The translations under genes and the position numbers were made by a program. Source: a virus. From it: DNA of 64,000 nucleotides. Of this stretch, positions 1-3,713 are shown piece by piece. Location of the stretch: IMG/VR virus record IMGVR_UViG_3300036715_000153, positions 76,395 through 140,394 of that record; one strand, given 5' to 3'. Position 1 is the stretch's first letter. The number at the start of each line of letters is the position of its first letter. Below the pieces are notes generated by a model. It did no database searches and had not been told where the DNA came from. It worked only from the letters and a program-made list of their open reading frames with translations.

Positions 1-1419
1 ACCACGAACTTCTGTTTCTGGTTCGTCTCTCGCCATCGCAATAGATAGTATCTGTGGTAACATATCGTGTGCTAGTCTATCTTTATATGCAGCTAATACT
101 GCCGCTCTCGCATCGCTGTTGTTGAGCGATTTAAAATATTCTTGAGTTGTAGCCCAAGCAAATAACACGATCGTCATAACCATATCGTCGTGTGCATTAT
201 CGTCTGCCTCGTACGAAGATCCTTTACTAATAAACGTAGAGAACTCTGAAATCGTCGCTTCGTCGTTTATAATAAGCAAGTCTGACTCGATAATCTGTTT
301 TGCATTCGAACAACCGATGCGCTTCGTACGCTTGTCTGTCCTCAATCCGTTCTGCTGTTGCATTGATGCACCAGACATTAACTGTTGTCCGTGTTTAGTA
401 GATTGCCCTACCCACGCAACGTTCTCGTAACCAAACTCATATACTAGCGTATCTGCGACTTGTTTACCCGTAGACTGAATCTCAATCAATACAAATGCTG
501 TGTTATATTTAGTTGCAGTTTGATATATGAAGTCCGGGAATACCATAGGATTCATTCTATTATTCTTATACGTTGCGACCTGATTATACGGTTTAGCCGT
601 AATGTCTATTACGCTGAATGCAGACGAATCCCCACCCACACCTTCAGAGCAGTCGACTGTCATCATGTATTGGTGACCTTCAATCGGGGATTGGTATATT
701 TTTAAATTGTTATGAATTAGTTCTGGATTAGCGTGTACTAGCTTGCGTAGTGTTTGTGAGTTTAATAGCGTACCAGATGAACCGATAAACTCTGCACCAA
801 ACTCTTGGTCGAACGTTTCTTGACCAATGTTAGAAATCGTATCTGCTTTCCATTTCTCATCTCTACCCGGTACGTCCCACCAGTTGATAGAGTTGGCTAC
901 GAACAGCGAACGTTTTGACTCCGCGTCTACCCACAGCTTATAGAAATGATTCAGACCTTTGGGTGTAGACACCAAGATAACCTTAGTTTCTTGACCAGAT
1001 GAAATAGTGGGATATACTGAGTCCCAGAACTCTGCCCACTGAGTGCCCATGATAAAAGCTACCTCGTCTACAAACAGCAGACTGATGGACGTATTGTGTG
1101 AAACTATTCCGTTGGCATAATATTTATTATCTTTAACCACGAATGCAGGATCGTACATCTTCTTACTACAGTTTATAATAGTTTTACTCGATACTTTACT
1201 TATACCCGATTCTGTCACTAACGCTGCACCATTGCGAATAGATGATGCCTTTTTCCATCCTCGATCAGTCATTAACGGGTGGTTGGGAGTTACTTCTATA
1301 GAATTACCATTGATTGTCTCGAATTTAATAGTTTCGTCTGTGTCATATACAGCGACACCCGAAAAATCGGACCACCCGTCTGGTGTAAGTATTTCCCAAT
1401 CGGTGTTATTTAGAAACAC
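1..1419 (-). CDS. gp17: Terminase large subunit, C-terminal half: split-intein IntC (109 aa, 1419-1093) fused to the TerL C-extein; runs off the window edge
   Basis: Translated by hand from GTG 1419: (M)FLNNTDWEILTPDGWSDFSG...TPNHPL...MYDP...YYANGIVSHN|TSISLLFVDEVAF...YPTISSG...LVSTPKGLNHFY. Intein blocks B, F and G are followed by the TerL Walker B and motif III. Absent from the ORF track because there is no stop in the window. Confidence 0.93.
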   Translation of the reverse strand, partial: MFLNNTDWEILTPDGWSDFSGVAVYDTDETIKFETINGNSIEVTPNHPLMTDRGWKKASSIRNGAALVTESGISKVSSKTIINCSKKMYDPAFVVKDNKYYANGIVSHNTSISLLFVDEVAFIMGTQWAEFWDSVYPTISSGQETKVILVSTPKGLNHFYKLWVDAESKRSLFVANSINWWDVPGRDEKWKADTISNIGQETFDQEFGAEFIGSSGTLLNSQTLRKLVHANPELIHNNLKIYQSPIEGHQYMMTVDCSEGVGGDSSAFSVIDITAKPYNQVATYKNNRMNPMVFPDFIYQTATKYNTAFVLIEIQSTGKQVADTLVYEFGYENVAWVGQSTKHGQQLMSGASMQQQNGLRTDKRTKRIGCSNAKQIIESDLLIINDEATISEFSTFISKGSSYEADDNAHDDMVMTIVLFAWATTQEYFKSLNNSDARAAVLAAYKDRLAHDMLPQILSIAMARDEPETEVRG

Positions 1420-1532
1420 GAATCCGCCCGAGCTGGTAAGAAGTTAACTAACAAGTCGTGACGGTCATGCATCACTTCCCCGTGATTTACATCGATCGAC
1501 AGCTTAGTTATGTAAAATGATTGAGTCATCAT
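1410..1532 (-). CDS. 40-aa hypothetical ORF between the split terminase halves
   Basis: AAGGAG Shine-Dalgarno then ATGATG; MMTQSFYITKLSIDVNHGEVMHDRHDLLVNFLPARADSCF*. Its stop lies just past the GTG start of IntC. Confidence 0.45.
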   Translation of the reverse strand: MMTQSFYITKLSIDVNHGEVMHDRHDLLVNFLPARADSCF

Positions 1533-1594
1533 TGAAATCTCCTTTATCTTTGGTGCATAAAACGTAACAGTCTTTAGCTGTTACGATGTAGCAC

Positions 1595-1741
1595 CTATCC
1601 CTGATTTAAAATATACTGTTTTACTGTCTCCGTTGATGCTTGTCCAGTCGATGCTACAAAATATCCATTAGACCAAAAAGTTCTTTCTTTCCAAAAATAT
1701 TTAGAAAGATCAAAATGTTTCCAAATTTCAATAGTTGTTTT
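1595..1741 (-). pseudogene. tnpA: Truncated IS200-type Y1 transposase (C-terminal ~48 aa only)
   Basis: KTTIEIWKHFDLSKYFWKERTFWSNGYFVASTGQASTETVKQYILNQG* matches the TnpA C-terminus FWSxGYF...YIxNQ. The N-terminal HUH region and a start codon are missing. Confidence 0.85.
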
Positions 1742-1814
1742 CCATAATATATTATTTAGTGAAATATATTTTCAATTTATAGTGAAATATTAAAAATGAT
1801 AACTAAATAGTAGT

Positions 1815-3029
1815 ATGGAATTCAAAGCATACAAATTCAGAATATACCCAACAAAGGAACAAGAGAAAACTCTTGCTAAGTTCTTTGGTGCCAAACGATG
1901 GATTTTTAATCATTATCTTCACGAAAATAAACAACGCTTTCAGAATAAAGAAAAGCACCTTTCTAATTTCGATATTAACTATGATATTACAACTCTTAAA
2001 ACATTAGAAGAAACTTCTTGGTTAAAAGAAATTGATTCTATATTACTACAGAACGCCAGTGAAGATTTACACACTGCATATTCGAATTTCTTTAATTCTA
2101 TAACTGGTAAACGTAAAGGTCCTTCTATTTCGATCCCTAAGTATAAGTCGAAATATGATAAACAATCATATCGTACTCGCGGTGTAAAGGTGAACTTCGA
2201 CGATAATATAATAACTTTACCAAAAATTAAGAAAGTCAAGGCAGCTATTCATCGTAAATTCACTGGTAATATTAAATCATCGACAGTTTCAAAAACTGCA
2301 TCTGGTCAGTATTATATTTCAATACTCGTTGAGGAAGATATTAAACTACTTCCTGCATCTGGTATCGAAATTGGTATTGATCTTGGTATCAAAGACTTGT
2401 GTATTTTGTCTAATGGTATCAAGTTTCAATCTCCTAGAATATTACTAGCAAAAGCCACGCTAGAATTAAAGAAGCAACAACGTAAACTAAGTAGAAAGCA
2501 AAAGAATTCTAAAAATAGAGCCAAGCAGAAAATTAAGGTAGCTAAAGCATATCAACGAATAACAAATATTCGTAATGCTTACTATCACGAAATTTCTAAT
2601 TATCTCGTTACGAATTTCGATGCAATATACATGGAAAGTCTCAATGTAAAAGGAATGCTAAAGAATCGTAAATTAAGTAGATCAATTCAAGAGTCTAGTT
2701 GGTCGACATTAGTTAATATGATTCAATATAAAGCAGGATTTTACGGTAAAACTTTTCATCAAATTGGTAGATTTGTTCCTTCGACAAAAACATGTTCGTG
2801 CTGTAATCATAAATTAGATTCGATTTCTCTTTCTACTAGAGAATGGTCTTGTCCGGTGTGCAATACACTTCACGACAGAGACCTGAATGCAGCATCGAAT
2901 ATTAAAAATTTCGGTCAATTAGATGTATATGATCGAATAATACCTTCACGTGCATCAAGTGAAGTGGAACTAAAAATTCCAGCGGCTCTATTGAAACACA
3001 CCAGTAAAATCGAAAGAACTGTAGTTTAA
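1815..3029 (+). CDS. tnpB: RNA-guided endonuclease TnpB
   Basis: KAYKFRIYPT N-terminus, RuvC-I GIDLG, RuvC-II MESL, Zn ribbon CSCC/CPVC, RuvC-III HDRDLNAASNI; all three catalytic acidic residues present. Confidence 0.96.
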   Translation: MEFKAYKFRIYPTKEQEKTLAKFFGAKRWIFNHYLHENKQRFQNKEKHLSNFDINYDITTLKTLEETSWLKEIDSILLQNASEDLHTAYSNFFNSITGKRKGPSISIPKYKSKYDKQSYRTRGVKVNFDDNIITLPKIKKVKAAIHRKFTGNIKSSTVSKTASGQYYISILVEEDIKLLPASGIEIGIDLGIKDLCILSNGIKFQSPRILLAKATLELKKQQRKLSRKQKNSKNRAKQKIKVAKAYQRITNIRNAYYHEISNYLVTNFDAIYMESLNVKGMLKNRKLSRSIQESSWSTLVNMIQYKAGFYGKTFHQIGRFVPSTKTCSCCNHKLDSISLSTREWSCPVCNTLHDRDLNAASNIKNFGQLDVYDRIIPSRASSEVELKIPAALLKHTSKIERTVV

Positions 3030-3108
3030 ACTACAGTTGGTGTGAGGACGGAGCAAGCGTAACAGTCTTTAGCTGTTACGCAGTTGACTACTATTTAACA
3101 TCAAGGCT
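2900..3108 (+). ncRNA. Predicted TnpB omega/reRNA (scaffold ends at 3088; guide about TACTATTTAACATCAAGGCT)
   Basis: TnpB reRNAs derive from the tnpB 3' end and right end, with the flanking DNA as guide. The 5' boundary is a guess. Confidence 0.55.
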
Positions 3109-3713
3109 AATTGCTCTATGGTTAAATGCTTTATTTCGCCAGTGACTTTGTGTCGTATTGTTATCATGGTAGATGCATCTACACATCCACGAATTGCGCT
3201 TGAGCTAGTAGATGCTGCGATGATAGACGAACCATTTTCTAATTCGATACTACCTTTGTTCCACGTCACCACACCTTGTTGTAACCAACTAGGTAATAAC
3301 TCGAAGGCAAATTTAAGACGACTTAAAATCTCTCTAGACGTAGCACCTTTGTTCGCTAGAATTGCAACAGTTTTACTCTTATTAAATAATATATAGTGAA
3401 GCATAAACCCAACGGAAGAAGTAGACTTCCCGGACTGACGACACCACTTCGATAACACAAATCTATTATTGTTTATATCGTTTACATATTTCTTTTGATA
3501 ATCGTGTAGATTAAATGGAATAATCCCTTTGTCTACGTGAACGATCTTCATATATGTTTCTATGAAGTAAACTGGGTCAGATTCACACTTAACAAATTCG
3601 TGAAGCTGTTCTGCTGTAAGCTCTTGTACTACTCCTACGGCTTTGAGCTTAGGATTACGATTGTAATACCTAGGGCCGTTATCAAATTTTAATCGCGCAG
3701 CTCCGGTTGTCAT
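3069..3713 (-). CDS. gp17: Terminase large subunit, N-terminal half, with 38-aa split-intein IntN (Cys1 at 3185)
   Basis: NPKLK, DPVYF, RQSGKS (Walker A), [26 protein letters not shown]...TIEQL. The last 6 codons and the stop come from the IS right end. Confidence 0.95.

Follow-up and report, generated by a model that had tools for sequence, protein, structure and literature searches.

A TnpB-carrying IS605-type element in the gap between the halves of a split-intein terminase gene of an uncultured phage

How does an insertion sequence (IS) carrying tnpB come to lie between the two halves of an essential phage gene, and what might its RNA-guided nuclease do there? The question is raised by the large terminase (TerL) locus of an uncultured phage of 140 kb, in which the genes around this locus are T4-like. 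The locus lies at the beginning of the window, the whole stretch of 64,000 nt analyzed here, which corresponds to bases 76395-140394 of the 140,394-bp virus record IMGVR_UViG_3300036715_000153 from IMG/VR. A protein homing endonuclease invading an intein is the explanation given for fractured genes; TnpB, in turn, has of late been reinterpreted as a nuclease for transposon homing, and this locus pairs both ideas. We consider it probable that the locus represents a trans-spliced fractured terminase with an ancestral gap, into which an IS605-type element was inserted later, and that the TnpB of this element is aimed at the IS-free allele. The nuclease niche of the fractured gene is held here by an RNA-guided nuclease, the target of which is fully predictable from sequence.

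The two halves of TerL are encoded by separate open reading frames (ORFs) on the minus strand. TerL-N (3069..3713, 214 aa) consists of the N-extein, residues 1-176 (3186..3713), which ends in ...SSSAIRG, and of a Cys plus 37 aa followed by a stop codon (3069-3071). These 38 codons (3072..3185) represent the N-terminal intein fragment (IntN), the core of which is conserved in P0002 and P0003. TerL-C has its own GTG start at 1419 and is 481 aa long in the full genome. Its first 109 codons (1093..1419) form the C-terminal intein fragment (IntC) with the motifs TPNH (block B) and IVSHN (block G), and the C-extein (1..1092), which extends 8 codons beyond the window edge, starts with TSISLLFVDE, containing Walker B. 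The ORFs thus match the first-pass annotation of this DNA, which had placed the end of TerL-N at AIRG followed by C plus 37 aa and had TerL-C start with a 109-aa IntC ending in SHN just before Thr. Pfam detects Terminase_6N on both halves and Terminase_6C on TerL-C, as well as weak intein/HINT matches on TerL-C residues 29-146. When compared with solved structures, the N-extein aligns with T4 gp17 residues 111-271, ending at G271, and the C-extein aligns from residue 273, its first residue falling at 272; therefore, the ligated terminase would have neither missing nor duplicated residues at the joint. The intein insertion point, directly after AIRG, lies in the ATPase domain and is 9-10 residues ahead of the Walker B Asp-Glu.

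Among solved structures, IntC is matched best by chain B of 6DSL, at E 1.8e-7, with IntC residues 3-109 aligned to residues 12-112 of the chain. This chain is CatC, which was engineered as a consensus of two atypically split inteins, AceL-TerL and GOS-TerL, and the match bears out the earlier assignment of the intein to the AceL/GOS type. IntN alone, being too short, has no match in the PDB. It carries the first splicing motif only, the remaining motifs being contributed by IntC, and the predicted splicing residues are all there, namely, Cys1, the block B Thr and His, the final His-Asn and Thr+1. From this arrangement we infer that the two halves are joined by trans-splicing. TerL-N and TerL-C would be translated separately, IntN would dock into IntC and complete the HINT fold, and Cys1, the TxxH motif, the final His-Asn and Thr+1 would perform the splicing reaction, releasing a terminase colinear with T4 gp17. 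In AceL-, GOS- and Cat-TerL, IntN comprises 25, 37 and 30 aa, respectively, and IntC 104-115 aa (PMC11766414). The present intein interrupts the same host protein and likewise combines a short IntN (38 aa) with a long IntC (109 aa), but its +1 residue is Thr, whereas those inteins have Cys. It is thus a further natural split intein with a short IntN, here with Thr at +1, of the type that is used for protein labeling.

The split is not peculiar to this phage. A search with TerL-N retrieved many short TerL-N halves with a similar IntN at the end. Among INPHARED phages and in IMG/VR there is no close relative, the best extein identity being 44-47%, and closer ones were obtained solely from the large protein collection. 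Six relative loci were fetched as contigs, and their identities below are those of the TerL-N search. In the closest relative, a single phage represented by two contigs that overlap by 18 nt (L055 and L097, 70% identity), the gap between the halves holds a 197-aa HNH endonuclease with a NUMOD3 motif and a second ORF. The gap contains a 359-aa HNH/NUMOD3 endonuclease in L057 (60%), a NUMOD3-motif gene in L059 (56%), a GIY-YIG/NUMOD3 endonuclease in L060 (61%) and a 161-168-aa gene of unknown family in L062 (55%) and L063. Thus, a separate gene occupies the gap at all six relative loci, and it encodes an HNH or GIY-YIG/NUMOD3 endonuclease at four of them. The IntN core is shared as well (CVDAST...LALMLNS here, CVSGDS...LAFVLNS in L055), and the IntC start, GTG TTT, is identical in L057 and L097. 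Since relatives at 60-70% identity share the split point and the GTG start without any IS, sequence comparison indicates that the split is inherited and far older than the IS, as had been proposed. By the same comparison, protein homing endonucleases of more than one kind are the usual occupants of the gap, consistent with the earlier suggestion of a nuclease niche at this place. TerL proteins without an intein exist at 66-67% identity (P0243 and P0244), and at least three neighboring intein insertion points are found among the relatives. In the TerL of L088 (1-1998, minus strand), an intein of this family is continuous rather than split and is located two residues further along, after SIRGMS.

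The element in the gap belongs to the IS200/IS605 family and occupies 1548..3088 on the plus strand, antisense to TerL. The 1.54-kb element reported in the first pass is thereby fixed at 1541 bp, with paired hairpins and a TTTAT flank. The 21-nt left-end hairpin (1564..1584) is identical to the right-end hairpin (3059-3079), both are subterminal, and the right end, ...GCAGTTGAC, terminates at 3088. The pentanucleotide TTTAT, the putative target and target-adjacent motif (TAM), lies immediately 5' of the element (1543..1547), which is inserted 3' of it with no target duplication. IntN codons 1-32 are phage DNA, codon 33 straddles the IS junction, and the last five codons and the stop lie within the IS right end, so that a variable acidic tail of IntN has been exchanged for six IS-encoded residues and a stop. 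As only this dispensable tail was replaced, the insertion is expected to be harmless, and since the IS lies past the 32-residue conserved IntN core, it should be irrelevant to trans-splicing. When the IS is excised in silico with ends at 1548 and 3088, IntN and IntC share one frame, which reads ...LNS-NKGDFNDDSIILHN up to a stop and then meets two more stops before VFLNN. These are the three in-frame stops (TAA, TGA, TAA) that had been predicted to persist after removal of the IS.

The plus-strand tnpB gene (1815..3029) encodes a protein of 404 aa with three Pfam TnpB domains, in which the catalytic Asp-Glu-Asp and the zinc-finger cysteines are in place. Residues 4-365 match ISDra2 TnpB (E 6e-71); D189, E274, D356 and C327/C330/C346/C349 are kept, along with all other residues at which 21 homologues are invariant. 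A single-protein TnpB query of viral contigs yielded one locus, and the related elements were gathered with an alignment query. By contrast with tnpB, tnpA is represented by a remnant of its C-terminal ~57 codons (1598..1768, minus strand), which covers only positions 70-121 of the Y1_Tnp model and has neither a start codon nor the His-hydrophobic-His (HUH) motif, whereas the relatives L072, L075 and L079 have an intact, divergent tnpA of ~126 aa. Because of this truncation, to which the first-pass annotation had not pointed, the element should be unable to excise or transpose alone and can be regarded as a non-autonomous derivative.

What the TnpB of this element would be directed against can be deduced from its right end. 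A guide-RNA (omega/reRNA) scaffold is predicted at 2944..3088 on the plus strand, overlapping the 3' end of tnpB and holding the right-end hairpin. When the 170 nt ahead of the right end are aligned across 21 related phage-borne elements, 29 of the 36 predicted base pairs display compensatory changes. All 21 right ends read ...GTTGA(C/T), and the sequences are unrelated beyond this point. This pattern of a conserved end followed by divergence places the right end of the element at 3088 and the start of the guide at 3089. The predicted guide segment, 3089..3108 on the plus strand, is therefore the IntN-coding DNA that the first-pass annotation had named, and it constitutes the target half of the empty site. 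The claim that TTTAT is the target motif is likewise confirmed by its recurrence in left flanks. TTTAT stands at the same spacing before the left-end hairpin in five other distinct elements at six loci (L072 and L074, which are identical, L073, L075, L078 and L079), and it likewise precedes a mini-element at genome position 74164. The reconstructed empty site is TTTAT + TACTATTTAACATCAAGG, in agreement with the earlier proposal. The sole perfect match to the guide in the genome is the donor site, which is preceded by the right end and not by TTTAT; hence, the phage should not be self-targeted. An Rfam scan of positions 1-5000 with E up to 1 returned no family, and hence neither a group I or group II intron nor a catalogued guide RNA. 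Transcription of the guide RNA and of tnpB converges with that of TerL-N at 3069-3108, so that the guide and right-end stretch of the RNA is the complement of the TerL-N mRNA at its 3' end.

Is tnpB likely to be expressed? The T4 late-promoter consensus is TATAAATA. This sequence is not enriched in the genome, the phage's own box being ACTAAATA. Of its 16 genome copies, nine precede an ATG-started ORF of the same strand by no more than 60 nt, although only 4% of positions qualify. The ORFs behind the box include those for portal, scaffold, major capsid, tail tube, baseplate cap, an HNH endonuclease and TnpB, as well as ORFs of 575 and 147 aa with no family match. By these positions, ACTAAATA behaves as the late-promoter box of this phage. 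One copy (1802..1809, plus strand) ends 5 nt before the tnpB ATG, and a second (1753..1760, minus strand) points through the tnpA remnant and the left end to ORF40, a short ORF in the gap, and to TerL-C, so that two divergent copies are found within a 58-nt spacer of the IS. A scan for sigma-70 promoters gave nothing above shuffled sequences, and the public runs listed for this DNA include no RNA run. Among related phage tnpB loci (L058 and L065-L095 were examined), a box of the ATAAATA type is found at most 75 nt before the ATG in 25 out of 30, mostly 4-8 nt away, and (T/C)ATAAATA stands at the position equivalent to that of the tnpB box. This conservation suggests that the TnpB lineage has adapted to late transcription in T4-like phages, and the mRNAs of the related tnpB genes are perhaps leaderless. 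A tnpB clade with T4-type late boxes near the start codon may matter more than the single insertion. The outward-facing box might, for its part, sustain the expression of TerL-C.

Without the IS, the gap would be ~130 nt long. It contains a 40-codon ORF, ORF40 (1410..1532, minus strand), with a strong Shine-Dalgarno sequence, AAAGGAG, at 1539-1545 and a stop that overlaps the GTG of TerL-C. No endonuclease domain is found in this gap with Pfam or PHROGs; ORF40 itself has no match in either database, nor does it match the second gap ORF of L097. Its residues 14-39 are colinear with residues 5-30 of the L055 endonuclease, with a score of 39 against 22.9 +/- 4.1 for shuffled sequences, one in 300 of which reached it. 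At the DNA level, the similarity between ORF40 and the L055 gap is not significant (83/500 shuffles). In another frame, the sequence before IntC reads ...LGRIRVSK and the endonucleases of relatives end in ...EGWVRVS and ...EIIRVS, although part of this 3' similarity is imposed by the IntC start. These resemblances faintly suggest that ORF40 is the 5' remnant of an internally deleted HNH endonuclease gene. In the relatives, too, the stop of the endonuclease gene overlaps the IntC start, which makes translational coupling to TerL-C a plausible present role of ORF40. A free-standing 406-aa HNH endonuclease of phrog_655 is encoded outside the window, at genome 17173-18393 (L105), behind a ACTAAATA box; phrog_655 is the same PHROG family as that of the gap-filling endonucleases of the relatives.

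These features can be combined into a history and a mechanism. The endonuclease gene of the ancestral gap has been lost, save for possible short remnants such as ORF40, and the IS605-type element inserted later, after a TTTAT just beyond the conserved IntN core. Judged by the architecture of the IS200/IS605 family, the TnpB-RNA complex would be programmed against TTTAT plus 16-20 nt of the IntN-coding DNA that adjoins the right end, a site that should exist only in the IS-free, intein-bearing allele. In a co-infection with an IS-free phage, TnpB would cut that allele, and the IS would be copied into it by recombinational repair, so that TnpB would do the job of the relatives' protein endonucleases. 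Since tnpA is dead, TnpB cannot serve to reinstate the element at a site from which it has excised, which leaves homing as the remaining selfish route. TnpA-independent homing by TnpB into transposon-free alleles has been described for plasmids and proposed for phages (PMC13565253). If TnpB homes here, the locus would show that in nature an RNA-guided nuclease can take the place of a protein homing endonuclease in a phage. The proposal can be carried further. TnpB and its guide RNA might be a working homing nuclease that is expressed from the late promoter and drags flanking terminase and intein sequence along, with the phage having become dependent on the element through an outward box that aids ORF40 and TerL-C; in this full form we regard it as unlikely.

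Could the locus instead be a broken one? The IS might have interrupted a continuous intein, in which case the split would be recent and possibly lethal. A continuous intein of the same family does exist in the terminase of another phage, L088, but the stops that remain after IS removal, the split point, GTG start and gap gene shared with the 60-70% relatives, and the position of the insertion past the conserved core leave this explanation hardly credible. Alternatively, the arrangement might be an assembly artefact, or the genome might be dead and its terminase non-functional. The record is metagenome-assembled, with an estimated completeness of 78%, and short-read contigs break at the identical hairpins. 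Nevertheless, Logan contigs of run X1 cover 900-1581 and 3058-3362 with 0 mismatches, each spanning one junction by 31-34 nt, and a contig of run X3, from another study, covers 3034-3267, again with 0 mismatches, spanning the right junction. The IS-bearing allele is thus present beyond the single record assembly, and misassembly is unlikely, as independent contigs span both junctions. Moreover, the intein catalytic residues and the terminase motifs are all intact, and the record has direct terminal repeats. We therefore consider an artefact or a dead genome very improbable.

A more serious contender, which we deem possible but not likely, is that the IS is a decaying passenger that landed at a TTTAT by chance, with an inactive or unexpressed TnpB, and that it is merely tolerated without any homing advantage. 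A plain opportunistic insertion at TTTAT, with no special relationship to the intein, is a live alternative as well. Several observations weigh in this direction and against homing. The tnpA gene is truncated and dead, and the C-terminal tail of related TnpB proteins is missing, which leaves this TnpB ~17 residues shorter than most of them because its TAA falls in the hairpin loop of the overlapping RNA, which is possibly a sign of decay. Three collapsed scars of the same IS family are found at other, ordinary intergenic sites of the genome, so that the insertion may just mark a TTTAT that happened to be free in a non-coding stretch. The IS also puts 1.5 kb of antisense DNA and two terminator-like hairpins between the halves, which may harm TerL-C expression. 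The arrangement is known from one genome, a second genome with the same insertion not having been found, and 3 of 34 scanned related tnpB loci, two of them nearly identical, are near TerL, which is about chance. Furthermore, an IS-free allele, the substrate that homing calls for, was found neither in contigs nor in databases; no contig from the public runs joins 1547 to 3089, though a minority IS-free allele could escape contigs. On the other hand, neutral drift after the loss of tnpA should have damaged tnpB too, yet its frame is open over all 404 codons with every invariant residue kept, the RNA scaffold retains all covarying helices, and a perfect late-promoter box stands before the tnpB ATG, as in the relatives. 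We thus favor the account of a trans-spliced fractured terminase in whose ancestral gap a later IS605-type insertion carries a TnpB aimed at the IS-free allele.

How does this locus compare with known systems? Atypically split terminase inteins, fractured genes and TnpB in phages are already known. The fractured genes described by Dassa et al. (2009) include one terminase locus with an unusually long C-part, the first terminase example (PMC2677866). As in those, an essential phage gene is present here as two neighboring ORFs on the same strand, each bearing a split-intein half. The fractured-gene pattern is seen in full in the relatives of this phage, whereas here its defining feature, the free-standing protein homing endonuclease, is absent, and the gap consists of a 40-codon ORF and a TnpB-bearing IS. 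The element itself resembles IS200/IS605 members such as ISDra2, the model on which the family has been studied, in its subterminal hairpins, its lack of inverted terminal repeats, its insertion 3' of a pentanucleotide and a predicted guide RNA made of the tnpB 3' end and the right end, with the guide derived from the flank. The differences are the truncated tnpA, the motif, which is TTTAT here and TTGAT in ISDra2, and the setting in a lytic-type phage, with phage late-promoter boxes, inside a split-intein gap. IStrons, in which an IS605- or IS607-type element is fused to a group I intron, retain TnpB after the loss of TnpA (PMC4227781, PMC13565253). In both cases a TnpB element sits where a self-splicing element spares the host gene, but here the rescue would be at the protein level, the intein is separate from the IS, which runs antisense to the host gene, and no intron was detected by the Rfam scan. 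Our literature search found no report in which TnpB is combined with a fractured gene or a natural split intein.

A candidate link between this TnpB family and TerL neighborhoods was rejected, the three loci out of 34 being about what is expected by chance. In two of them, L090 and L091 (1983-4715), tnpB starts ~80 nt past the end of an intein-less TerL; the third is L088, where two tnpB genes and an IS607-type serine-recombinase gene (2054-5526) lie directly upstream of TerL.

The genome has a G+C content of 40%, and the samples of origin appear to be metagenomes of sediment and microbial mats. TerL-N adjoins the gene for the small terminase (3715..4170), which is followed by the tail sheath stabilizer gene (4167..5072), and the portal, scaffold, major capsid and tail tube genes are located elsewhere in the genome. 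The three solo elements, ~30-46 nt each, are located at 24091-24129 of the window (minus strand) and, outside the window (L002 and L004), at genome 74164-74209 and 37694-37719. Each consists of the left leader GGTGCATAAAA, one hairpin and the right tail GCAGYYGAC, and they look like products of IS collapse by recombination between the identical hairpins. The one at 74164, preceded by TTTAT, is intergenic. It is abutted by a TATAAATA box, ~75 nt upstream of the start of a 493-aa protein with ~8 tandem repeats of ~45 residues (...GTGNRVMTSPDGITWT...), which is encoded just outside the window (genome 72597-74078; L006:2597-4078, minus strand) and is probably a tail-fiber or receptor-binding protein.

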